Below are positions 37,187 to 64,000 of a stretch of DNA of 64,000 nucleotides, piece by piece; the first letter of the stretch is position 1, and every line of letters starts with the position of its first letter. Location of the stretch: positions 899,241-963,240 of the forward strand of contig OZ242015.1 of NCBI GenBank assembly GCA_965204785.1. The letters are read 5' to 3'. The notes beneath the pieces are model-generated. The model was not told the origin of the DNA. It ran no database searches and saw nothing but the letters and a program-made list of their open reading frames with translations. The translations under genes and the position numbers were made by a program. The stretch is from Alphaproteobacteria bacterium. GTDB taxonomy: Bacteria > Pseudomonadota > Alphaproteobacteria > SP197.

Positions 37187-37831
37187 TCAGCCCGACTTGT
37201 TCTCGTCGTTTTCGCTTTCGCCGTCCTCCGCGGCTTCCTCGTTCTCACCCTCTTCAAGGCTCTCGACCTCCGCCTCGGTTTCCGCGACCTGATCGAGCAC
37301 CTGTTCCTCAATCGCCGGGGCAGAGGCTTCTTCTTCGGCCATGCGGCCCACGGCGCGGCCGGTTTCGTACTGGATCACGGCCTCGTCCTCGCTGCGCGCC
37401 ACGTTCGCGGTGATGCCGACGATGACCTCCGGATGCAGCATGACCTGAACGTCATGCAGGCCAAGGGTCTTGATCGGCCGGGACAAAACCACGCTGCGCC
37501 GGTCGGCCTCGAAACCCTGCGCGATCAGGCCGTCGGCGATGTCGTGCGCCTTCACCGATCCGTAAAGCTGCAGGTTGTCGCTCGCCTGGCGGATCAGAAT
37601 GACCTGTGCGCCTTCCATGCCCTCTGCGACCTTTTTGGCCCGGCTGCGCTTCTCGGCATTGCGGGCTTCGCGCTCGGCGCGTTCGGCCTCGAACTGCGCA
37701 ACGTTGTCCTTGCTCGCCCGCAGGGCCTTACCCTGGGGAATCAGGAAGTTGCGGGCATATCCCGGGCGCACTGCGATGACATCGCCCATCTGACCCAGTT
37801 TCTCGATGCGCTCCAAAAGAACGACGTCCAT
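37187..37831 (-). CDS. rplI: 50S ribosomal protein L9 with acidic C-terminal extension
   Basis: [39 protein letters not shown]…. Confidence 0.95.
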
Positions 37832-38833
37832 CTAATCCTCCATCGCGGCGTTGGGGTCAACGCCAAAACGTTCACGAAAATTTGCCCAGCGTTCGACAAA
37901 TCCGACGGCAGTAAACGCCATGGCGCCAAACGGCTGGAAGACGAGCACCACAAGATAGGAGCCCGCCAGAATAAGGGGCTGCGCGCTAATGCCGCGCGTC
38001 AGCGCATGCAAAACCGCGAGACCCTGTAGCAGAAACCCCACCCCAAAGACCAGCAGGAATCCCGTCAAAATGTAGACCGCGAAGGCAATTGTGCCTTCGC
38101 GGTCGCCTCCCAGCGTGTCGAGGCCCAAAACCACGACACCGATCAGCAGGGTTGCATAGAAGGGCCAGCCCGGCAGACGCAGGCGCCAGAACGGCGGAGC
38201 GGGGCGCTGCGCGTAGCCTCCGCTGCGCACGAGGCCCTGTGCCAGGGCGCCCATCGCGGCGTGGGAAACGACCACCACGGCTACGATCGTGCCTAGGACC
38301 AGCGAATCCCAGAAATCGGCGATCTGGGCGATGTTCGTGACCGCGTCGGGTCCGTGGCTCGCGTCCGTGCCGTAAAACGTGCTCATCAGCAGGTTGAGAT
38401 TGCTCCGGATGGTACCGACCAAGCCGGCCTGGGTCAGGGAAACCGCCAATGCGGCGATGATCAGGATGAAAAGCCCCAGGATGACAAGGATCTGTGTCAG
38501 ATCCGATGCCGAGAGATAGACGTTCCCCGTGTCTGGTGTCTTGTCGATCTGTTGCGTGGCGACATGGCCCAGCAGAAAGGCCGGCATCACAAAGGCGACG
38601 CTGAACACGCTGGCCAGCAGCGGATCGCTGAACGCCATGGTGCCCGCCACGGCAACCACGCCCGCGATGCCCGAAGCCAGCGAGTTCATACCCAGACCGG
38701 CGATATAGATCGGCAGCGGCGAGCACAGCACCAGAAAGACGCCCCAGATCGAGTGGGAAAGACCCACGACATAAAGTGCGCCGGCGGCGATGCCCGCCAG
38801 CAGGGCGACCACGGGTGTGTAGAGCGTCAGCAT
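37832..38833 (-). CDS. DUF2232-family polytopic membrane protein (conserved between rpsR and rplI in alphaproteobacteria)
   Basis: 333 aa, about 8 TM helices. Confidence 0.7.
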   Translation of the reverse strand: MLTLYTPVVALLAGIAAGALYVVGLSHSIWGVFLVLCSPLPIYIAGLGMNSLASGIAGVVAVAGTMAFSDPLLASVFSVAFVMPAFLLGHVATQQIDKTPDTGNVYLSASDLTQILVILGLFILIIAALAVSLTQAGLVGTIRSNLNLLMSTFYGTDASHGPDAVTNIAQIADFWDSLVLGTIVAVVVVSHAAMGALAQGLVRSGGYAQRPAPPFWRLRLPGWPFYATLLIGVVVLGLDTLGGDREGTIAFAVYILTGFLLVFGVGFLLQGLAVLHALTRGISAQPLILAGSYLVVLVFQPFGAMAFTAVGFVERWANFRERFGVDPNAAMED

Positions 38834-38922
38834 CGGTTGGCCCGATCCGAATTTCGCGTCCCGCCAGGCATGTCGGGGCTCACAAAACCGAGCCGAAGGA
38901 ATCGGCCTTTTGAACGCAAAAT

Positions 38923-39183
38923 CTACTGGGCGATATAGGGAAGCAGGGCGAGATAACGTGCGCGCTTGATGGCGCGGGCCAGTTCACGCTGCTTCTTGGC
39001 CGAAACGGCCGTGATGCGCGAAGGGACGATCTTGCCGCGCTCGGAAACATAACGCTGCAGCAGCTTGATGTCCTTGTAGTCGATCTCGGGCGCATTGGCG
39101 CCGGAGAACGGGCAGGTCTTGCGCCGACGCCAGAAGGGGCGGCGGGGGGAGGCGGCCGGTCCGGCCTGTCGCATCTGGCCCAT
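38923..39183 (-). CDS. rpsR: 30S ribosomal protein S18
   Basis: …[60 protein letters not shown]. Confidence 0.95.
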
Positions 39184-39186
39184 CAG

Positions 39187-39579
39187 TTATCTCCGTTCGT
39201 CGTCATCGTCCGATTCGGTCTCGCCGTCGCGGCGGATCGAACGGTCTTCGCGGCTCGACTTGTTGCGCATCATCGGCGATGCCTCGGGATCGAGACCGTC
39301 CACCTTGATCGACATGTAACGCAACACGTCTTCGTTGAAGTGAAGGGTGCGCTCCAGTTCGCCCAGAGCGACCGCCGGGGCTTCCATCGTCATATAGACG
39401 TAATGGCCCTTGCGGTTCTTCTTGATCTTGTAGGCGAGTGACTTCAAGCCCCAGATTTCGGTCTTGGGGACGGAACCGCCCTGATCCTTGACTAAGGTCT
39501 CCATCTCGCCGGCAAGCGCTTCAACCTGCTGGGGCGAAGCATCGGGGCGGACAATAAACGTGCTCTCGTAGAAAGGCAT
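39187..39579 (-). CDS. rpsF: 30S ribosomal protein S6
   Basis: MPFYESTFIVRPD…, acidic tail; the ORF-track upstream extension was ignored. Confidence 0.9.
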   Translation of the reverse strand: MPFYESTFIVRPDASPQQVEALAGEMETLVKDQGGSVPKTEIWGLKSLAYKIKKNRKGHYVYMTMEAPAVALGELERTLHFNEDVLRYMSIKVDGLDPEASPMMRNKSSREDRSIRRDGETESDDDDERR

Positions 39580-39804
39580 GAAACCTTCCAGGTTCGGTTG
39601 TTTTCCATAATCCTGACGCCGGTACAGCGTGGCATACGGCAAAAGCCACCGCAGCCCGCTACTCATGTGCCGGCGAAGGCGCGCACTATAGTCAAAAACG
39701 TTTGGGGTGCAAGCGGCTTGACACGGCTTCTTTCAGACCGTTTGACTGGCCCCGCCCGAACGGGCATGGCAAGTTGTTCAAGCAACCAGGGGAAGGCTGC
39801 ATCC

Positions 39805-51572: not shown

Positions 51573-52840
51573 ATGCGGATTTCTACGAAGGATTTCCGGC
51601 GGAGATCGCGCAGATATCCGCGCGCGACCAGGTCGAACTGGATCGCTTCAAGATCGGCTTGTATATCACTGCGTGAGGGAAGCCCGTTGTTGCCCTCTTC
51701 GCGTTCGCAAACGACGATCACGTGGAAGCCCTGCTCGGTACGCAGAGGCACACTTGCCTCTCCGACCGACAGACCGGCAACTGCCTGACCGAACGAAGGT
51801 TCAAGGTCGCCCAGACGGACGGCGACGGCAGAACCCACCGCCAGGGTCGGGTCTGCCGCACCCAGGGAAGCGAGATCGTCGCATGTCGAAAGCGCGCTTG
51901 CCGCGGCGACAGCTTCCTGGCGCACAACGTCGTCGGCTTCATCCTGGCTGACGGGGAATATGACTTGGCGCAGCGTCAGACTGCTGTCGTCGGGCGTGGC
52001 TTCAAAGCCAATGCGCCTGTCACGCATCAGGATCATGGTAAAGCCGCCGATGACCCGGAGGGGCTGGGAAATGTCACCTACGGGGATCTGAGGCACCACG
52101 GCGCGCAGATCTTCGGAAAGCTGGCTTTCGACAATCCAACCCAGACCGCCGCCTTCGATGGCGCTCGCGCTCTGGGAAAACTGGCGTGCGATGATGGGGA
52201 AGCTGGCGCCCGACAGGATGGCTTCGCGCAGGCGAAGCATGTTGGCTTCAATCTCGGGCTCCCGCGACGGCTCGTCCACGGCGAGATAGATTTCAGCGAG
52301 CAGATAGGCCGGTTGATCTGCCGCGGCGCCCAAGCGATCGAGTTCGGCATCGATGTCGTCCTCGGTGATGACGTCGGTCTGCATGCGCCGTTCGACCAGT
52401 TCGGACCAGATGATTTCCGCCTTGAGCTGGGTATTGAGCGATTCGAGGCTGAGATCGTTGTAGTTCATGAAGGGTTCGAGTTGGCCCGAGGGCAAGCCCA
52501 GATTTCGCTCCACCAGACGATAGGCCTGATCGAATTCGATGATGACGTCGTCCAGCCCGGCGCGGCGTCCTTCCTGAAGCTGGAGCCGTTCGTCGATCAG
52601 GGTGCGCAGCACCTGGGGCAGAATGCGTCGCCGGGTTTCCTGATTGTCCTCCAAACCTGTGGTCGCAAAAATGATGGCGGTCCGCTCGTAAAGATCAAGC
52701 AGGGTGATGGCGTCATCGTTGACCACCGCCGCGATGCGTCCGGCATCCTGCGCCCGTACGCCTCCATTCGGTATACCCAGCGCAAGGACGGACGCAACCA
52801 TGGCAATAAGACAGGTAATGACGTTGATTCTGACAGACAT
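51569..52840 (-). CDS. surA: periplasmic chaperone / peptidyl-prolyl isomerase SurA
   Basis: Signal peptide MSVRINVITCLIAMVASVLALG; SurA N-domain plus parvulin domain(s). Confidence 0.85.
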   Translation of the reverse strand: MSVRINVITCLIAMVASVLALGIPNGGVRAQDAGRIAAVVNDDAITLLDLYERTAIIFATTGLEDNQETRRRILPQVLRTLIDERLQLQEGRRAGLDDVIIEFDQAYRLVERNLGLPSGQLEPFMNYNDLSLESLNTQLKAEIIWSELVERRMQTDVITEDDIDAELDRLGAAADQPAYLLAEIYLAVDEPSREPEIEANMLRLREAILSGASFPIIARQFSQSASAIEGGGLGWIVESQLSEDLRAVVPQIPVGDISQPLRVIGGFTMILMRDRRIGFEATPDDSSLTLRQVIFPVSQDEADDVVRQEAVAAASALSTCDDLASLGAADPTLAVGSAVAVRLGDLEPSFGQAVAGLSVGEASVPLRTEQGFHVIVVCEREEGNNGLPSRSDIQADLEAIQFDLVARGYLRDLRRKSFVEIRI

Positions 52841-52929
52841 GACGACCGGTTCTTGGAAAGCGCGGAACATGCGAGAGTGGAGCCGCGAAATCAAGGCGCT
52901 TTGATGGCCGCTACCATTCAGGGGCATTG

Positions 52930-55065
52930 TTATCCCAGTGTCTTGAGTTGTACGGTAAAGAAAAAAATCGTCTCGGGATCGACGTCGTCTGTGAACTGCC
53001 GCTCCCCCCTACCGATAATCGCAATGCACTCGTTTTCGTAAATCAGTGATCCACCATAAGAGATTGTACCGCCGCCGGAGAGGTCCCGGCGCCAGCTGCC
53101 TTGGACGGCCCACTCGTCAAGAACCCTCAGCATTGTGCGAGTCGTCACTTGCTCTCGTTCGCCGGTCGTATCGACGACATTGTTCGCAACGTCCTTGAGG
53201 TGAATGTAGTTCACATTCAAACGCGCCCATTCGGGACCGACCGCCATGCCTAGTTCCTGGTGCTGGAATTCCAAGTTGTCTTGGCCGAGCCTGAATCTAT
53301 AGAGCAACTGGACATATTCGCCGGGACTAATCAGGACACGACCAACATAGTCGGAGAAATTTCCCCTGCTTTGAGGGCCAAATGTATCGTCGTCGCGTTC
53401 ACGCCAAGTCTGGCCTATCAGAAATTCACTGCGTCCTCCTCCGGCACCATAGATGCCCATGCGGATGCCATAGTTGACCCGCAGCCCGCCTTCCACGCGG
53501 TCAAGCCCGGGGAAGCGGTCTTCGCTGAACAAGTTGATGTCGTCGAAAGCGAACTCTTCGCTATCCTCATTGGGGATCCGGACAGGGTTTCTTCCGTTGG
53601 GACTCCAGACGGTCATGATGATCGGTTCGATCAATTGTTGTGTGTCACCGCTCTGGCGGACCAAAGGCCAGCGCCACTCTAGAGAAGTCTGGGGAATGAT
53701 GCGACTGACGAAACCAGACTCAGGCGGCTGTTCGTTGCCAACCTGAACTTGGTCGACCTGGTACGCATCGCCTCGTAGGGAAGCCCGAAAGGTGAATATC
53801 TGGCCGTTCCCGGTGACCAGAGGGCGTTCCCATGCGCTTTCGACCGATAGGCGTCGGCTGTCGGTTCCATCGTTACGTGCCAGAGCAAGAATGTTTGAAT
53901 CGAGCGTGAAAAAGGCGCCATTTTCGTCCGGATCAGTCACCAGGTTGTGATTCAGCACTGGCGCTGCCACAGGAATCTCTCCGGGGTCGTCGTCCTCCCG
54001 CAGACCCTGAAAAGTATATGCGAACGCCGACGCATAGGTGCGGTCGTGGAAGCCTTCGACATAGATTTCGGAAGTCAGCGTATCGGCATCGTCAAAACTA
54101 TAGCGTGAGAGATAGGTGTCGTCTGATGATCGATAGAGGTCAAATCCGTACTGCCAGGTTGGATCGTAATTCCAGAGCCCTTCGCCCTTGATAAACCAGC
54201 GTTCTTCTTCGTCGCCACCCGACCTGGTGCCGTCGTTGTTGCGCGCATCGGTGTAGGTCGCCGAGCCCTCGAAGATGTAGTTACCTGTTTCGGTCCGCTC
54301 TCGATATTCTCCGACGAGCACTACGCCCTCTTTCTGAGTGACGATGGGCGCGAACGTCGCATCCCGGTTCGGGGCAAGATTGAAGTAATAGGGAACCTGC
54401 ATTGTATAACCTAGCGTGCTCGACGATCCATAAACGGGCGTGAGAAATCCCGAACGGCGCTTAACGGTCGGGTCGGCGTGGCGCATGTAGGGTGTGTAGG
54501 CGACCGGGACACCGAAAACCTCCAGTGTCGCATCGTAATAGATGAGATCGCGCAGCAACTCGTCATGGATCACCCGGCGCGCCTTGACCTGCCAGAACGG
54601 AGCATGTTTCGTGCTGTCCGCGCAGACTTCGCAGGACGTGTAGATGGCCCTGCTGAGTTCGGTGATGCGCCCGTCGACGCGGCGTGCGCCGTTGGCTGCA
54701 AGCTGTGTGCGTTCGTCGAGCAGGATGAGAATGCCGCGAATCGCGCCCACGCGCAGGTCGCCCGTTAGTTCCGCGTATTCGGAGAACATCACCTCACCGC
54801 TCGGCTCCACCAGCACGACATTACCCGAGGCCGTCATCAGGTCGTTGGGCTCGTCATAGGTGACGGTGTCGGCCTGGAGAATGCGGCCCTGATGAGCAAA
54901 CTCGACATCGCCGCTGGCGGTGACGATGCCGTTGACGTCGTCATAACGCACGGTGTCGGCCTGCATGATGATGCCGTCCTCGACGTTGGGTTGTGCATGG
55001 CCCGGGCCGGCGCCCTGCAGCAGAGCGATCAGCAGGATCAGGGGGAACAGGCGGCGCGACATCAC
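52930..55065 (-). CDS. lptD: LPS-assembly outer-membrane protein LptD
   Basis: 711 aa, signal peptide, LptD/OstA fold. Confidence 0.9.
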   Translation of the reverse strand: MMSRRLFPLILLIALLQGAGPGHAQPNVEDGIIMQADTVRYDDVNGIVTASGDVEFAHQGRILQADTVTYDEPNDLMTASGNVVLVEPSGEVMFSEYAELTGDLRVGAIRGILILLDERTQLAANGARRVDGRITELSRAIYTSCEVCADSTKHAPFWQVKARRVIHDELLRDLIYYDATLEVFGVPVAYTPYMRHADPTVKRRSGFLTPVYGSSSTLGYTMQVPYYFNLAPNRDATFAPIVTQKEGVVLVGEYRERTETGNYIFEGSATYTDARNNDGTRSGGDEEERWFIKGEGLWNYDPTWQYGFDLYRSSDDTYLSRYSFDDADTLTSEIYVEGFHDRTYASAFAYTFQGLREDDDPGEIPVAAPVLNHNLVTDPDENGAFFTLDSNILALARNDGTDSRRLSVESAWERPLVTGNGQIFTFRASLRGDAYQVDQVQVGNEQPPESGFVSRIIPQTSLEWRWPLVRQSGDTQQLIEPIIMTVWSPNGRNPVRIPNEDSEEFAFDDINLFSEDRFPGLDRVEGGLRVNYGIRMGIYGAGGGRSEFLIGQTWRERDDDTFGPQSRGNFSDYVGRVLISPGEYVQLLYRFRLGQDNLEFQHQELGMAVGPEWARLNVNYIHLKDVANNVVDTTGEREQVTTRTMLRVLDEWAVQGSWRRDLSGGGTISYGGSLIYENECIAIIGRGERQFTDDVDPETIFFFTVQLKTLG

Positions 55066-57349: not shown

Positions 57350-57883
57350 CCGTCGCAACTATTTTATGACTGAATGATGCGCCCAGGGCCAAAATCCCGC
57401 CGCGTCGGGTTTGATTCAGGACGAGAGTCTTAAAGGCGTGCTCTTCAAGGGATCCTGGTGGTTCGTTCAACAGTTTGTTAAGGTTTTCCAGGGTTGGCGT
57501 TAATTGCCGGACCCGTTCGGCTAAAGTTGTGCCGGACTCAAAGGCCCCGCCAACGCGGCAACGTCCCTGTCTATCTCCAACATCACGGCATCGCCAACAA
57601 GATCTTCCGCAATTGCTGTCAAGGTCACGATTCCGCCCCCGGCAAACGGCTCAATAAGGAACTGAGCATTGGTATGCCGAAGCCATTCTCTTAATATGGA
57701 GTATAAGCCACGTCTTACCGCCCGGATAGCGCACAAGGGGCTGCGTTGCGGAACAATGCCAGTGCGGACATTGAATTGCGCTCTGCTCTTAGCCTTCCGG
57801 CAATTTTTGCACCGGTGGGTTTGAGTGGGGTGCGTGGTTTCCGACGACATCCAGGCTATCGCATCGTGGACAACAGACACCAT
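57350..57883 (-). pseudogene. D12-class (Dam-like) N6-adenine DNA methyltransferase N-terminal remnant
   Basis: …AIRAVRRGLYSILREWLRHTNAQFLIEPFAGGGIVTL… (motif I EPF.GgG) ending at a stop; possible continuation in another frame (…TLVLNQTRRGGILALGASFS ~ Dam fNrkGefNvpfG); no catalytic DPPY region. Confidence 0.3.
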
Positions 57884-57899
57884 CTGTCCAACGCTCAGC

Positions 57900-58150
57900 C
57901 CTAAGCCATGCCCTGGATTTTGTCTTCTGTACTGAACATATAAGCTATTTCCAGTAGCCTCAGACCTTTATGGTAGGATTTCCTCAATGCTTTGCTTGCC
58001 ATTATGCTTTTCCTTTGATTGCGTTACTGAATAAAAACCGATATTATCACCTGTGACAAACGATTACTATTCGATATAATTGCCTTTTCATTAGAGTCGG
58101 GGTTTCCAGTCTTAAGCCAGTGTGTAGCCTAAACAATGGCGACTATACGC
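57900..58150. other. AT-rich (~40% GC) island in the lptF/pepA divergent intergenic region
   Basis: e.g. ctgaataaaaaccgatattatcacctgtgacaaacgattactattcgatataattgcc. Confidence 0.5.
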
Positions 58151-58344
58151 TAAGGAGTCCGGTAAAAACAGGTCACTAGCTCGGATTTCTCACCACCGCG
58201 ACGGCCTGCGCGTTTCGACCCCGCCAGCAGGATTAGGAAAGACGCGCTGCGCGATGCTGGTCCATCGGGCAAGCGTCTTAACACACCCTGCCGGGGACTC
58301 TTCACAACACCGGTTGATGCTCTAAAGTCGCGCGGACAACCCAC

Positions 58345-59856
58345 ATGGCCCGTCTGAAGGCCCACGAACCTGGATATGAGGACATGATCGAATTTTCGTT
58401 TGCCAACGCCATTCCTGACGACGCTGACACCGTCATCGCCGCGGTGGAGGAGGGGCCCAAGCTCTTCCCCGTGGCCGAATATCTCGACAAGACAGCAGGG
58501 GGCGCCATTTCGCGGGCCGTCAAGACGGGCCGCTACAAGGGCAAGAAGGGCCAGATGCTCGACATCCTGGCGCCTGACGGCATGAAGGCCGAACGCATTG
58601 TCGCCGTGGGAGCGGGCGACTATTCGGGCTACAAGCCGCTGGACCGCCACAATCTTGGCGGACAGACGCTCGCCCACCTCAACCGGGTCAGAGCGCGCCA
58701 TGTGGCAGTCCCCACGCGCAATCCGACCGACGTCGTGGAGTTTCTCCACGGCATGCGCCTGAAGAGCTACCGCTTCGACCACTACCGCACCAAGCAGAAG
58801 GAAGACGATCTTCCCACCGTGAAGAAGGTGACGCTGGTGTGCGACGATGCGGCAAAGGCAAAGGAGAAGTTCGCCCGCTTGCAGCACGTCGCCGATGGCG
58901 TCTTCCTAACCCGTGATCTCGTCAGCGAGCCCGCCAACACGCTTTATCCGGAAGAATTAGCGCGCCGCGCGGGCGAACTCTCCAAACTCGGCGTCGAGGT
59001 CAACGTGCTGGGCGAGGCCGAGATGACCAAACTCGGCATGGGTGCGCTGGTCGGTGTCGGTCAGGGCAGCGGCCGCGAAAGCCAGCTCGTCACCATGAAG
59101 TGGCAGGGTGCTGGAGACGACGACCCCTGGCTTGCCGTCGTGGGCAAGGGCGTGTGTTTCGACACTGGCGGCATTTCGCTCAAACCCGGTGCGGGCATGG
59201 AGGAGATGAAGTTCGACATGGCCGGCGCTGGCTGCGTCACCGGCCTCATGCATGCGCTGGCCGCGCGTAAGGCCAAGGCCAATGTCGTGGGCGTCATCGG
59301 CTGCGTGGAGAACATGCCCTCGCACAATGCCCAACGCCCCGGCGACGTGGTCACCACCATGTCGGGCCAGACCATCGAGGTCATCAACACCGATGCCGAA
59401 GGCCGCTTGGTTCTGGCTGATGCGCTCTACTACGCGGTGAAGGAGTTCAAGCCCAAGGAGATCGTCGATCTGGCCACGTTGACCGGCGCCATCATTGTCG
59501 CGCTGGGCAGTTACCAGGCAGGTCTCTTCTCCAACAACGACGATCTTGCCGCCGCGCTGACCGCCGCGGGCAAGGAGACCGGAGAGGAGCTCTGGCGCAT
59601 GCCGCTGGGCGAGCGCTACGACAAGGACATCAGTTCCGACATCGCCGACATGAAGAACGTCGGCAAGGCGCGCGAGGCGGGTTCCACCGTCGGCGCCATG
59701 CTGCTCCAGCGTTTTGTCGAGGACACGCCTTGGGCGCATCTCGACATCGCGGGCACCGCCTGGGTGAAATCCGACGAGCCGATCACGCCGAAGGGCGCCA
59801 CCGGTTACGGCGTGCGCCTACTTGACCGTTTCGTCACCGACAACTACGAGAAATAG
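58345..59856 (+). CDS. pepA: leucyl aminopeptidase PepA
   Basis: M17 peptidase (…NTDAEGRLVLADAL…). Confidence 0.95.
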   Translation: MARLKAHEPGYEDMIEFSFANAIPDDADTVIAAVEEGPKLFPVAEYLDKTAGGAISRAVKTGRYKGKKGQMLDILAPDGMKAERIVAVGAGDYSGYKPLDRHNLGGQTLAHLNRVRARHVAVPTRNPTDVVEFLHGMRLKSYRFDHYRTKQKEDDLPTVKKVTLVCDDAAKAKEKFARLQHVADGVFLTRDLVSEPANTLYPEELARRAGELSKLGVEVNVLGEAEMTKLGMGALVGVGQGSGRESQLVTMKWQGAGDDDPWLAVVGKGVCFDTGGISLKPGAGMEEMKFDMAGAGCVTGLMHALAARKAKANVVGVIGCVENMPSHNAQRPGDVVTTMSGQTIEVINTDAEGRLVLADALYYAVKEFKPKEIVDLATLTGAIIVALGSYQAGLFSNNDDLAAALTAAGKETGEELWRMPLGERYDKDISSDIADMKNVGKAREAGSTVGAMLLQRFVEDTPWAHLDIAGTAWVKSDEPITPKGATGYGVRLLDRFVTDNYEK

Positions 59857-60093
59857 CAATCGGAGGAGATCAGATGATGGAGGACCGCTTCGCTGAACTT
59901 GTCGGTGCCGATGCACCGGCACCCGATGCGGCTTTGCTCACCCGGCTACGCCGCGAACTCAACGGTCTGACGCATCGGCTCGAATGCGCCGGCGGCGGCG
60001 GTCCCGCCGCGTCGGAGACCAATCCCGCCATCGGTGCGTGGCAATGTTTCTGCATGGTGCCCGACGACGACGCCCGATGATGCGCGCAAGATC

Positions 60094-60582
60094 GTGACCG
60101 AGATCGGCTTTTATCATCTCCAGCGCACGCCGTTGGAACGTGCATTGCCCAAGCTCCTGGAAAAGGCGCTGGAACGTGGCATGAGGGCGCTCATCCTGAC
60201 GGGGTCGTCGGAACGCGCCGAGCAGTTGAACGATGTGCTCTGGACTTACGATCCCGCCAGCTTCCTGCCCCATGGCAGCGTCAAGGAAGGATCAGAGACT
60301 TCCCAGCCCATTTTTCTCACCGACGAAGACCGCAACGCCAACGGTGCCAACCTGCTGGTTCTCGTCGATGGCGTGCAGAGCATGAAAACCGCGGCGTTCG
60401 AGCGCGTCATCGACATGTTCGACGGCACCAGTGAGCCAGCGGTCGCGGCCGCCCGGCAACGCTGGAAAACGCTTAAAGACGCCGGTCTAGCCCTGACCTA
60501 CTGGCAGCAGACCGATCGCGGCGGCTGGGAGAAAAAGGCGCAGGCCAACGAAGAATCCGCCGGCGGGGAGACCGCTTCATGA
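60094..60582 (+). CDS. holC: DNA polymerase III chi subunit HolC
   Basis: GTG start; (M)TEIGFYHLQRTPLERALPKLLEKALERGMRALILTGSSERAEQLNDVLWTY…. Confidence 0.8.
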   Translation: MTEIGFYHLQRTPLERALPKLLEKALERGMRALILTGSSERAEQLNDVLWTYDPASFLPHGSVKEGSETSQPIFLTDEDRNANGANLLVLVDGVQSMKTAAFERVIDMFDGTSEPAVAAARQRWKTLKDAGLALTYWQQTDRGGWEKKAQANEESAGGETAS

Positions 60583-60619
60583 CGCATTTCACGCTCTAAG
60601 GGAACCCTGGCTGGGGTTC

Positions 60620-61300
60620 GTGCCCAGCTTGCCTTCTATGGCCTCGACTACGAATGCGTGTGCGCAGGCGAGTTGTTCGAGGACGCCCGGGAGCGGCAAA
60701 GTGGTGCTGGACATTCCACGCGACCGCAACGGCAGCTTCGATTCTCCTTTGATTGCCAAGTTCGGCGCCGATCTGGCGCGCAAGTATCTCCACGAGTCCG
60801 ACCTGAAAGACGCGACCATGACTGGGGCCAAGCTGGACTACGCCACGCTGACAATGTCCGAACTGGACGACATCGTCCTTCGTGACGTTCAGGCCAAGGG
60901 CATGTCCATGACAGGCTCCAGCGCAGAGCGTGCCGACCTCACTGGCGGCCAGTTTCAGGAGGCGCGGTTCCTGCGCACCTACATGGAAGAGGCGACACTG
61001 GACGACGCCGACTTCACGGATGCGAACATGAAGGAGGTCAATCTGTGCGAGGCCAGCGCTGTACGTGCGGTCATGAAGTACGCCGACCTTCGTGAAGCCG
61101 ACATGGTGAGCGCAAAACTGGAAGGTGCGAACCTGAGATACGCCGACCTGCGCAAGGCCGATTACCCGAACGCGCTGGAGAAGGGGACGATCTCCGTGTG
61201 TTATGCAAAGAGATGGAACTCCCCGCCACGGGGACGAACGCCGTGCTGCTGGAACGCATCCGGGAAAAGGGCGGCGAGGTCGAGTTCTGGCCGGAGATAA
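60620..61300 (+). CDS. pentapeptide-repeat protein
   Basis: Tandem A(D/N)LxxA-type pentapeptides (…ADLTGGQFQEARFLRTYMEEATLDDADFTDANMKEVNLCEASAVRAVMKYADLREADMVSAKLEGANLRYADLRKAD…); N- and C-terminal boundaries uncertain. Confidence 0.5.
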   Translation: MPSLPSMASTTNACAQASCSRTPGSGKVVLDIPRDRNGSFDSPLIAKFGADLARKYLHESDLKDATMTGAKLDYATLTMSELDDIVLRDVQAKGMSMTGSSAERADLTGGQFQEARFLRTYMEEATLDDADFTDANMKEVNLCEASAVRAVMKYADLREADMVSAKLEGANLRYADLRKADYPNALEKGTISVCYAKRWNSPPRGRTPCCWNASGKRAARSSSGRR

Positions 61301-61560
61301 AGGCCGAGTGCGCGGCAGAGAACGGGGGCAAGGAGATACTGCAGGCCACGTTGTGGGCAGGGATTCTACGCCACGTCCTCATCGTCAACAGCGATGCCGA
61401 GGTGGAGAAGCTGTTTCGGCCGGGATACCCGGAAGTTTCGATCTTCTGGACGGACTATGGGACAGGCGTGCCGTTGAAGGCACGGATCGACATGCTTCTT
61501 CCGAACCGGCAATGGACCTCAAGACGCTGTCGAACTCCAGTGGTTTGCCGTTCCATGAGC
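61198..61560 (+). CDS. hypothetical protein (unassigned) upstream of the recombinase remnant
   Basis: MLCKEMELPATGTNAVLLERIREKGGEVEFWPEIKAECAAENGGKEILQATLWAGILRHVLIVNSD…; no family recognised; may be decayed. Confidence 0.25.
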
Positions 61561-62272
61561 CTCGGCTATAAAGACCGCAAGGCCATCGCGACAGTGTTGA
61601 AGGCGATATACACAGCCGTGGATGCCGAGGTGGTAGAGGCGGGAAGCGGTTTGCACGATCTTAACGCTCTATGCCCGTTCCAGTGCCACGGCCGAAGTGA
61701 TTCACGAGTTGGACGCGTGCGAAATCCGCACCAAGACCGGCAGGCTCTACGACAAGACTTCCCTCAACAAGACCCTGTATAACAAGGTCTATCGTGGCCT
61801 CGCCGTGCACAAGGGTGAGGCCTATCCCGGCGAGCATGATGCGATCATTGACGAGCCACTTTGGGACGAGGTGCACGAAGTGATGGCGAACAAACCGCGT
61901 CAAGTGGATCGCCGTGGCCAAGGAACCCTCACCGGCGTTGCTGCGCGGGCCGCAGTGGCTGCCCGGCGGTATGGTCGAGGATGCCGTGACCGGTGAAATC
62001 CGGCGTCTGCTGCGCACGCCTGAGGTTGCCGCGCGTATGTCGCGGGCCTGCGCAAGGATTGGCCAGACCTTGGCGAAGCGGCGATAAGCGCGTCGCTGAC
62101 CCAATTCGACGAGATGTGGAACGCGCTGGTCCCGGCTGAGTTGGCGCGCGTTGTCCAATTGCTAGTAGCGCGTGTCACCGTCAGCGAGGCTGATCTGGCG
62201 GTCGATCTGCGCCGCGAGAGATTGGGCGCGATTGCCGCGCTGATAGTCCCGATGAAGGTGGAGGTCGCCTGA
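61560..62272 (+). pseudogene. large serine recombinase remnant: recombinase domain and C-terminal tail in three frames, catalytic resolvase domain absent
   Basis: Frame a …EIRTKTGRLYDKTSLNKTLYNKVYRGLAVHKGEAYPGEHDAIIDEPLWDEVHEVMANKPRQ; frame b …EPSPALLRGPQWLPGGMVEDAVTGEIRRLLRTPEVAARMSRA…; frame c …FDEMWNALVPAELARVVQLLVARVTVSEADLAVDLRRERLGAIAALIVPMKVEVA*. Confidence 0.5.
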
Positions 62273-62386
62273 TGGCGGAGCCCGGGACCCTCCGCGTCCA
62301 CATCCCGCTCGCCCTGCGCAATCGGGGCGGCCGCCCCCGCATTCTGCCACCGAAGGACATCGAGAGAGCGTACGGGACGGTAGTTC

Positions 62387-64000
62387 CTACAATCGCTTCT
62401 TGCCCCTACACTTGGGATAGCTCACGCAGCCCAAGAAGGGACCGTAGCGGCTAGAACGTTCTACAAGCCAACCATCCTGACACTCGGGACAGGTACAGAA
62501 CGAGGCCCCACACGAACATGTTGCCTCTGCCGAGTTGACTTGGCGCTCAGGCAACCCCACACCGCACTCCGAGCATGCAGGTAGAGAATGCCCACAGAGT
62601 TCCGCATGCTCACATCTGTACCAGGTACGACCGTCTTTCGTGGGAAATGCCAGAAGATGGCCGCCACATTCACTGCAGATTTCATCTCGTTGCCGGTCCT
62701 TGTCTTCCCCGACAATTTCATATTCCGGGTCAGCGATCAGTTCGTCAACAAATGCCGACTGTTTGGAGGCGGAGCCCATCAGCGTCACTGTGCGACGGGC
62801 GCGTGTCATAGCGACATACATAACTCGGCGTTCTTCGGCGTTTTCAAATGGCTCCGCATCCGGCGAGACCAGGCTCAAAAGGGGATCGTCGACAATTTCC
62901 GACGGGAATCCGGTGCGCCCCCTATAAAGGTTCAGCAGGACCACATGATCCGCTTCCAGTCCTTTTGAAGAGTGGATAGTTCGAAATGACAGATCAAGGC
63001 TTGGAAAATCCCTCCGTAATTTGTTCAGGCCAGTGGGGGCAACATACTTATACCTGCCAAGCAACAGGACGCTCGACCTCTTGCTCTCCAAATCGGCGAG
63101 TTCCGAAAGGGATTGAAGCACCTGTACAAGTTTCTTTTCGGCATCATGGCGGAATGTCGAAACCGATCTGACCGCGGGATACGTGGCCTCTCCCGCCGGA
63201 ATAACCGTTTTTTCAATCTGTGCTGGGTTCTTGAGGACGAACTTTCGGGCGGCATAGGCGATCTTGTCGACGGAACGAAAGGTTCTGCCCAGATCCACCG
63301 TTCTATGAACCGCTGTTTGACCATCGAAACTGCCGCCAAACTCAATGCCAAAGTTGCGCATGAGATTGATGTCCGACCCCGCAAAACGGTAGATCGACTG
63401 CCAGTCATCCCCGACGCCAAAGATGCGGGCGTCCGGATGCTGTGCTTTAAGAGCCCGAACGAGACGCCCCCGGCTACGTGAAATATCCTGGAACTCGTCG
63501 ACCAAAATGTGGTGGTAGGAGCTGCTGTACTGCCCGTTCTCAACGTATTCAGACGCACGCAGGATCATGTCCTCGAAGTCGATACGAATCCCAAGACGGT
63601 TCTGATACTCGCGATAGACAGGTTCGAAGATCGATAGGAACGCCCGCGCACGGCGGCCAAGCTTCAGCTTCTGTCCCTTGGCTTCACAGTCCGACAGACT
63701 GTAGCCACCGCCTTTGTAGTGACGCAGAAACGTCCCGAGCAACTGAACAAAACTGTCGACCTTGTTCAGTTCAGCCACACGATCGAACAATGTCCCACGA
63801 GATCGCGGCTTGAGTGTTTCGAACGGCGAAATTTTTTCTGCCAGGGCCTCAAGCAGGCAGCCATCTTCACGCTCATAGCTGAAAGTTTCTACAAGCGTCG
63901 TCTCGTGGGTCGTGTGAACTTCACGTTTCCAGGCCATTCCTGCAAGATACTCTTCGCGGTCGACGAAGGGCGCTGTCGAAAACTGGTATGATCCATCGCC
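62387..64000 (-). CDS. UvrD/Rep-like superfamily-1 helicase (motifs III-VI) with C-terminal topoisomerase-type C4 zinc ribbons; N-terminus beyond window end
   Basis: ILVDEFQDIS (III), IFGVGDDWQSIYRFAGSD (IV), TIHSSKGLEADHVVLL (V), VMYVAMTRARRTVTL (VI); then CSECGGHLL…WYRCEHAELCGHSLPACSECG…CSCGASFCTCPECQDGWLVERSSRYGPFLGCVSYPKCRGKK; frame stays open to 64000 (…YQFSTAPFVDREEYLAG-MAWKREV…); Walker A not in window; local GC about 55%. Confidence 0.7.
   Translation of the reverse strand, partial: GDGSYQFSTAPFVDREEYLAGMAWKREVHTTHETTLVETFSYEREDGCLLEALAEKISPFETLKPRSRGTLFDRVAELNKVDSFVQLLGTFLRHYKGGGYSLSDCEAKGQKLKLGRRARAFLSIFEPVYREYQNRLGIRIDFEDMILRASEYVENGQYSSSYHHILVDEFQDISRSRGRLVRALKAQHPDARIFGVGDDWQSIYRFAGSDINLMRNFGIEFGGSFDGQTAVHRTVDLGRTFRSVDKIAYAARKFVLKNPAQIEKTVIPAGEATYPAVRSVSTFRHDAEKKLVQVLQSLSELADLESKRSSVLLLGRYKYVAPTGLNKLRRDFPSLDLSFRTIHSSKGLEADHVVLLNLYRGRTGFPSEIVDDPLLSLVSPDAEPFENAEERRVMYVAMTRARRTVTLMGSASKQSAFVDELIADPEYEIVGEDKDRQRDEICSECGGHLLAFPTKDGRTWYRCEHAELCGHSLPACSECGVGLPERQVNSAEATCSCGASFCTCPECQDGWLVERSSRYGPFLGCVSYPKCRGKKRL

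Follow-up and report, generated by a model that had tools for sequence, protein, structure and literature searches.

The 64,000-nucleotide stretch analysed here (the window; positions 899,241 to 963,240 of contig OZ242015.1 from an alphaproteobacterium) runs out, at 60.7-64.0 kb, into DNA that is probably the visible edge of a composite genomic island. This island has replaced the native holC-GST-...-ndk-purN neighbourhood and carries a helicase gene that is best understood as an imported stand-alone nuclease-helicase. For the window, the outcome is that a composite island is delimited, that two of its apparent genes appear to be scraps, and that an open reading frame (ORF) left unassigned in the original prediction is a piece of a RecE-type exonuclease. 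The island edge is itself ordinary; the helicase, judging from the context of its homologs, is a plausible candidate enzyme against foreign DNA.

The left boundary of the island is set by comparison with relatives. Two clear native genes, pepA (58345-59856) and holC (60034-60582; Pfam DNA_pol3_chi, E = 4e-37), precede it. The closest match to holC in the genome contig collection (76% amino acid identity) is found in an uncultured alphaproteobacterial metagenome-assembled genome (MAG; locus L002), and further matches come from Rhodospirillales- or Stellaceae-like MAGs. Collinearity of L002 with the window begins at ~47.6 kb and ends altogether at ~60625-60686. On the 3' side of holC it possesses a GST-like gene (assigned by Pfam GST_N, with an ATG overlapping the holC stop), ndk, a 2-hydroxyacid dehydrogenase gene, purN, a DUF2066 gene and hda; a long antisense ORF between purN and the DUF2066 gene is taken to be purM. 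Only a decayed 5' stub of the GST-like gene is left in the window (60579..60686, plus strand), recognised by DNA alignment with L002. The ATG overlapping the holC stop is common to both, codon 7 is TAA in the window and TAC in L002, and the stub shows two deletions of 11 nt and 16 nt relative to L002, with ~100 nt of the gene kept and similarity gone past ~60686. Non-native DNA begins at ~60686, inside this decayed GST gene, and not directly after holC at 60583, where the island start had been placed. In a tblastx comparison (E <= 1e-5) with 80 holC loci of relatives, covering up to 10 kb downstream, none shares any part of 60583-64000, apart from the GST stub in L002, and synteny with close relatives is broken at this point. 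The proposal that the region is non-native and related to mobile elements has held up, as this DNA is carried by none of the 80 holC loci, the helicase gene is compositionally foreign, and its homologs occur in defence and mobile-element contexts.

Base composition divides the island into two layers. The helicase region (62387-64000) has a GC content of 0.543, against a window mean of 0.621 (standard deviation 0.024 for 1.6-kb windows; z = -3.2), and only 0.2% of the 1.6-kb windows have a GC content as low. GC at third codon positions (GC3) is 0.59 in the helicase gene, 0.82 in pepA and ~0.74-0.75 in holC. The original prediction had described a GC drop directly after holC; the drop is real for the helicase, but the GC content of 60.6-62.4 kb stays at 0.59-0.64 and the abrupt step comes at ~62.39 kb. 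The gene scraps in between have a host-like GC3 of 0.74-0.79 (0.79 in the pentapeptide block, and 0.65 in the short second IS256 piece described below), so that base composition is atypical for the helicase only. Because the scraps match the host in GC3, the island appears composite. Its older layer (60689-62361) would consist of inactivated scraps of mobile-element genes that are either long resident or derived from donors of similar GC content, and its younger layer (62387 to beyond 64000, minus strand) would be a separate, later arrival, a horizontally acquired gene for a stand-alone nuclease-helicase.

Transfer of the helicase gene is also documented outside the window. The gene is 89.4% identical at the nucleotide level to a copy in locus L001, on a 4.28-Mb MAG contig; the alignment contains no indels and similarity stops exactly at the stop codon. 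The L001 copy lies at an unrelated locus with non-homologous flanks, namely BrxR, an SNF2 helicase and DUF1156 on one side and Peptidase_M78 and DUF4411 on the other. It is split by an IS66 element (L001 7059-9961, containing TnpA-like, TnpB and IS66 transposase genes) with GTAAGCG-type ends and an 8-bp target duplication, ACAGCGCC; the gene of the window is continuous across that point. The ratio of non-synonymous to synonymous substitution rates (dN/dS) between the two copies is 0.13 over 530 codons, and the helicase is evidently under purifying selection. The closest metagenomic relatives (78-82% amino acid identity) are found on marine contigs with a GC content of 0.44-0.55, which fits a donor of lower GC. 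The helicase is a horizontally acquired and apparently intact gene.

The window contains the 3' 1,614 nt of this gene (62387..64000, minus strand; 537 codons and the stop), which Pfam and NCBIfam place among the helicase IV-like helicases of superfamily 1A (SF1A). No further stop interrupts the frame between 62387 and the window edge, and ~400 codons at the 5' end lie beyond it; the listed helicase ORF of 516 amino acids merely starts at an internal ATG. UvrD-helicase (PF00580) is matched with 71 bits (cut-off 23), UvrD_C (PF13361) with 50 bits (cut-off 25.6) and the NCBIfam helicase IV model with 261 bits. The original prediction of a minus-strand SF1 helicase of 537+ residues is thus upheld by the open frame and the UvrD domains, and its list of motifs, III to VI, is to be extended by motif II. 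Motif II (VDEFQD) is located at 63485-63502, motif III at 63377-63412, motif IV at 63272-63292, motif V at 62942-62980 and motif VI at 62795-62824, all on the minus strand. The protein is one of the UvrD/Rep-type SF1A motors, with motifs II to VI intact. Topoisomerase-type C4 zinc ribbons had been noted at its end, two in number. They do match Zn_ribbon_Top1 (PF01396; 44.5 bits, cut-off 32; two matched stretches in the last 123 amino acids), but three CxxC...C clusters are present (62594-62677, 62510-62575 and 62408-62491, minus strand), two of which match the topoisomerase-I type model. At the other end of the fragment, 63872-63979 (minus strand) encodes the last ~36 residues of a nuclease domain inserted into the motor. 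To judge from full-length relatives, the window copy would also possess a HelD-type N-terminal region, a Walker A motif and the nuclease domain in full.

Such relatives are numerous at 50-90% identity. They are ~900-940 amino acids long, carry the annotation 'UvrD-helicase domain-containing' or 'DNA helicase IV', and are encoded by, among others, Rhodobacterales, Rhizobiales, a Verrucomicrobia MAG and Thioalkalivibrio. In a BLASTP alignment of one of them (P0007) with E. coli HelD, residues 125-261 correspond to HelD 153-288 (49% identity) and residues 494-820 to HelD 367-679 (38%); the relative has in addition an insert of ~154 amino acids in the middle and ~120 amino acids at the C-terminus. 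Helicase_IV_N is weak, lying above the cut-off in P0041 (26.6 bits) and below it in the other homologs scanned. An N-terminal NERD or nuclease domain, which had been suggested, is absent from the relatives: five homolog sequences, full-length or N-terminal, are without a NERD match at E <= 0.1, their N-terminus resembles that of helicase IV, and the nuclease lies inside the motor. There, between motor motifs Ia and II, the insert is a Vsr/DUF559-like PD-(D/E)XK endonuclease domain of ~150 amino acids, with a restriction-endonuclease-like fold and conserved acidic catalytic residues. It is unannotated in current domain libraries, a weak match to Phage_endo_I being the sole one in Pfam. Across 61 full-length homologs, E340, E341, D376 and E387 are invariant, as are Walker A (GSGKT) and motif Ia, both of which lie beyond the window in the window copy; all 12 zinc-ribbon cysteines are invariant or nearly so. 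A full-length structural model (pLDDT 83) finds matches in PcrA, Rep, UvrD and AddA. A profile of the nuclease domain retrieved the representatives of 2,566 clusters formed at 50% identity, 334 with E <= 1e-30; among the best 150 of the 2,566, most proteins are 880-1050 amino acids long with the domain at approximately residues 320-500. A large family is indicated, of 2,500 or more clusters at the 50% identity level, in which the poorly understood helicase IV scaffold bears the nuclease domain together with three DNA-binding zinc ribbons. Literature searches found no description of this architecture and no experimental data on any family member. The window helicase belongs to a large helicase IV variant that is visible in databases but apparently uncharacterised.

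These data bear directly on the alternative that the gene is the housekeeping HelD ortholog of the host, active in RecF-type recombination or repair, and that the neighbouring scraps are unrelated junk. E. coli HelD (NF008276/PRK11054) is the closest named match, with common SF1A motifs and a weakly recognisable Helicase_IV_N at the N-terminus, and the core identity of 38-49%, the purifying selection and the location of some homologs between housekeeping genes all agree with such an ortholog. The score of a full-length homolog 74% identical to the window protein (P0006; 441 bits with NF008276) is nevertheless under the equivalog cut-off of 543, and the domain layout excludes membership as well, as E. 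coli HelD has neither the inserted nuclease nor the tail of three zinc ribbons. HelD is a fixed chromosomal gene, whereas this family is mobile and patchily distributed, with many and varied neighbourhoods and an 89%-identical copy at an unrelated locus of another genome. Nor is the gene a paralog conserved at this locus with native GC content, the finding that would have overturned the original prediction; the 80 relatives lack it downstream of holC, and its GC3 contrasts with the 0.74-0.82 of the native genes. A housekeeping HelD is unlikely on this evidence.

The combination of a UvrD-type SF1A motor and a PD-(D/E)XK nuclease in one polypeptide is shared with AddA, RecB and AdnB, and the structural matches include AddA (4cei, E = 1.9e-15), RecB and AdnB. 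In those enzymes the nuclease is of the RecB family and C-terminal, whereas here it is Vsr-like and internal and is supplemented by zinc ribbons; moreover, they work as heteromers (with AddB, RecCD and AdnA, respectively), and the present family has no conserved partner. Hhe (Gao et al. 2020) is an anti-phage system of one protein that joins a helicase and a Vsr endonuclease, and its defence activity depends on the active site of the latter (bioRxiv 10.1101/2022.06.16.496414). It is a much larger protein, in which the nuclease site lies at E1731, and the likeness is one of analogy and not of membership. The PADLOC model for Hhe is absent among the best 25 of the 51-53 matches for P0006 and P0007 and from the four matches obtained with the nuclease domain alone. 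These four include PDC-S68 and PDC-S69 (E = 3e-10 and 5e-10) and HEAT_CxxC_PD-DEXK (E = 7e-4), which have the nuclease domain alone in common with the family, are otherwise unrelated, and are themselves unvalidated candidates.

A further likeness is to GajB of Gabija, a UvrD-like helicase of defence islands, chains of which are weak matches in the PDB. PADLOC matches GajB at E = 2.8e-28 with the window fragment and 1e-42 with full-length homologs, and RTasHel at 1.9e-21 and 1e-44. The helicase might on these grounds be a subunit of a known multi-gene defence system, such as Gabija GajB or a DRT-associated helicase, with its partner encoded just past the window, and one homolog (L134) does have an AAA_21/AAA_15 ATPase ORF directly downstream. 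Both matches are limited to the generic UvrD core, however, and GajB is ~500 amino acids long, lacks nuclease and zinc ribbons and needs GajA. Neither a GajA/OLD-type nor a reverse-transcriptase neighbour recurs among the more than 20 independent homolog neighbourhoods, and the gene upstream of the L001 copy is a divergent BrxR. Membership in such a system is very unlikely.

The neighbourhoods of homologs, more than 20 independent contexts, contain no conserved partner of any kind and include defence and mobile-element genes. Beside helicase homologs are found CBASS with HTH/M78, Mrr and a resolvase (L088), NikA-like and integrase-like genes (L093), HTH_36, DUF2924 and a serine recombinase (L095 and L097, the latter also with HsdM), AbiEi and ParE (L099), and Fic (L128); another homolog lies in an island ending in a tyrosine integrase (L089). 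An aggregated Pfam scan of the homolog loci returned resolvases, rve integrases, PIN, HipA, AAA_21 and DNA methylases. The serine recombinase was considered as a general vehicle of the helicase and rejected, as the linkage is confined to L095-L098.

Two local associations were observed besides. In one subclade of helicases (71-74% identical to that of the window), an ORF of ~360 amino acids without a Pfam domain overlaps the helicase stop (L133 5736-6815, L137 11638-12705, L139 11638-12723, L140 7209-8336 and L148 803-1795), which points to an operon partner specific to this clade; no such ORF occurs in the window. On plasmids of Rhizobium and Martelella, a conserved hypothetical protein of ~462 amino acids is encoded 25 nt upstream of a more distant helicase (L082 10953-12341 and L084 10953-12344), followed by AbiE or PLD/AAA/HNH genes. 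The plasmid neighbourhoods of Rhizobium, Martelella and Polymorphum, with the 462-aa protein or AbiE, were set aside as context because their helicases are only ~33% identical to that of the window.

Another recurrent position is next to gene transfer agents (GTAs). Helicase homologs at 56-65% identity are convergent with the tail end of an RcGTA-like cluster, within ~3 kb of it, at 11 of the 14 IMG/VR loci; GTA-adjacent loci from IMG/VR and NCBI comprise L099-L104, L106, L108-L110, L112 and L114. The loci in the viral collection were retrieved by an alignment-based scan, a single-protein scan having given none. The gene order at the GTA end is g15 (GTA_TIM, Phage-tail_3 and Rcc01698_C), a DUF2793 gene (641 amino acids), an ORF of ~100 amino acids and Peptidase_M15 (224 amino acids). 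This adjacency may stem from a functional connection, from a hotspot for insertion or from biased sampling; the sample is indeed biased, because GTA clusters are classed as viral in IMG/VR. It raises the alternative that the helicase-nuclease is an accessory of a GTA or a prophage-like element and processes DNA for packaging or on entry and not for defence, as the convergent arrangement in the IMG/VR loci and in L099 and L100 would allow. The bias of the sample counts against this, no GTA gene is visible in the window, and many homologs have no GTA neighbour. In sequenced phage genomes, moreover, the family is almost absent, with four weak protein matches on small metagenomic records. An accessory of this kind is highly improbable, the least probable of the explanations weighed here.

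A mode of action for the stand-alone nuclease-helicase can be outlined from its domains. The enzyme would be loaded by its zinc ribbons and motor where DNA is single-stranded or branched, would translocate 3'-5' with ATP as energy source, and would then cut the DNA being tracked with its embedded nuclease, a scheme that would resemble in outline those of AddA/RecB and of single-protein helicase-nuclease defence enzymes. Since the gene travels alone and recurs in defence islands, in integrative elements and beside GTA clusters, a role in conflict with foreign or mobile DNA is the most likely of those considered, although it is held tentatively and falls short of an even chance. The main alternative is a HelD-like accessory role in recombination or repair, and the GTA link is a minor one. 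A more specific version is possible but doubtful: the HelD-derived enzyme may be an unrecognised stand-alone immunity protein that recognises and cuts replicating or incoming foreign DNA or, more speculatively, a factor of GTA DNA processing, the window copy being a recent import that is still functional. If a one-gene enzyme against phages or plasmids is indeed at hand, it would provide another helicase-nuclease solution in bacterial immunity and a functional handle on the HelD lineage; if the protein is a repair accessory only, the region would be an ordinary island edge. The suggestion that the region is the edge of an integrated element or defence island accordingly stands as regards an island edge, and its defence part draws on the context of homologs, the PADLOC matches being generic.

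Several observations weigh against the interpretation of the region as an island with an imported defence-type enzyme. Homologs in Rhizobium (L086) and in two TARA loci (L129 and L131) stand alone between housekeeping genes. The recurrent GTA-side position in loci taken, from their RcGTA-like cluster, to be of Rhodobacterales type would also be compatible with a cellular function that is stable and inherited vertically. No defence-system model of PADLOC fits beyond the generic UvrD/GajB-type matches. In the visible part of the island neither att-like repeats nor a tRNA were detected: tRNA and Rfam scans of the whole window gave no RNA genes, and a scan of 59.8-64 kb gave nothing convincing in the way of att-like or IS-end repeats, promoters or terminators, including the att-like direct repeats that had been anticipated near 60590. 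The window includes neither the second end of the island nor the first ~400 codons of the helicase; in that unseen part the gene may be truncated or, like the L001 copy, interrupted. Finally, a chimeric assembly join is conceivable, though unlikely.

The last point depends largely on the older layer. It is made up of ~1.7 kb of coding scraps, all on the plus strand and separated by six junctions, and all of them are necessarily non-functional. Two long ORFs, 60620-61300 and 61198-61782, arise by reading through these junctions in GC-rich DNA. The first runs from the GST stub through an IS256 scrap into pentapeptide repeats and ends in an out-of-frame reading of the next scrap. The pentapeptide-repeat protein originally predicted here therefore appears to be a fragment and no clean gene, even if its repeats are genuine; the block (60764..61189, plus strand) has no start or stop of its own, matches PF00805 with 82 bits (E = 1.5e-23) in four stretches, and includes a 37-nt periodic repeat at 61020-61161. 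NCBIfam pentapeptide families are all far below their cut-offs for this ORF. The second read-through is the ORF at 61198 that had been thought unassignable. It is present as described, and it can be assigned, to a SAP motif and the N-terminal part of a truncated exonuclease VIII/DUF3799 (PD-(D/E)XK) gene (61213..61527, plus strand), followed by an IS256 fragment. The exonuclease scrap matches phrog_412 (E = 3.2e-12; profile positions 222-296 of 440) and, weakly, Pfam DUF3799 (E = 5.5e-4) and SAP (E = 1e-3).

Two fragments of an IS256-family (Mutator-type) transposase flank these scraps. Fragment A (60689..60763, plus strand) covers approximately residues 77-101 of 408 and was identified by tblastn with a Sulfitobacter IS256 transposase and by a weak Pfam Transposase_mut match. 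Fragment B (61528..61638, plus strand) covers residues 258-295 of 408 (tblastn, 55% identity over 38 amino acids). Only 25 and 38 codons of the 408 are left, at 55-62% identity to the Sulfitobacter transposase. Strand and order of the fragments are alike, and in blastn they appear as two pieces of the same insertion sequence, fragment A with 81% identity to IS256 copies on Sulfitobacter plasmids and fragment B as a second piece of these same copies. No complete IS256 transposase remains, and a repeat search of 59800-64000 found no inverted repeats flanking the pieces. The two ordered pieces are assumed to bracket unrelated scraps as a result of successive insertions and deletions.

The remaining scraps derive from a large serine recombinase element. 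As originally described, the recombinase relic (61658..62236, plus strand) is spread over three frames and has no catalytic domain; it is recognised by Pfam Recombinase (PF07508, 33.3 bits, cut-off 21.1), the phrog_95 integrase profile (E = 7e-12) and tblastn. Against an intact homolog of 436 amino acids it aligns at residues 193-273, 332-362 and 371-424, so that residues 1-192 (the catalytic resolvase domain) and 274-331 (a zinc-ribbon segment) are missing. Resolvase (PF00239) gives no match to it in the window Pfam scan, and the relic has no single intact frame. Its identity to the intact 436-aa recombinases of L095 and L097, which lie ~3 kb from helicase homologs, is 38-44%. The relic is followed by a stub of the ORF that normally accompanies this type of recombinase (62272..62361, plus strand; the first ~30 codons), ending ~25 nt before the helicase stop codon. 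On visual comparison its translation, MAEPGTLRVHIPLALRNRGGRPRILPP, corresponds to the beginning of the ORF that follows the recombinase on Paracoccus versutus pBEN, ETIRVFIPLTIRKRNGRPKILPP, an ORF homologous to a 134-aa ORF after the L097 recombinase. Beside the recombinase and IS256 relics, no DUF2924 gene and no element ends remain in the window; DUF2924/large serine recombinase elements and IS256 are intact elsewhere, and both are dead here. PADLOC gave no matches to the scrap ORFs, and none of the scraps has a DNA match in the phage genome collection.

Six junctions within 1.7 kb, insertion-sequence fragments among them, together with the abrupt GC step at ~62.39 kb and a host that appears to be an uncultured alphaproteobacterium with MAG relatives only, are what might be expected if a metagenomic mis-join through repeated mobile-element sequence had brought in the helicase from another organism. 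Mis-joins normally occur at one shared repeat, however, and not at six in series. The transition from the GST stub to the scraps is gradual and unbroken, the GC3 of the scraps is host-like, and the recombinase relic is truly decayed, with an internal deletion and missing domains, next to clean flanking genes. Horizontal copies of the same helicase are, besides, independently documented. Because the decay is graded, a mis-assembly is quite unlikely.

Some further features of the host stretch were observed. Between an lptF/G-like gene and pepA, ~870 nt of extra DNA of low GC content (0.48-0.53) is present at 57360-58300, where L002 has only ~116 nt. A minus-strand ORF within it (57521-57883) contains a methyltransferase-like 'EPFAGGG' motif and gave no Pfam match, and this DNA is probably another small foreign remnant. 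A second patch of lower GC content (0.55-0.57) at 52500-54500 is collinear and syntenic with L002 and is native, not part of an island. Lastly, genes at positions 12900-15540 of L006 and L008, loci of more distant relatives, 3-5 kb downstream of holC, match 37370-39580 of the window on the opposite strand, which indicates a rearrangement around the holC region in the host lineage.

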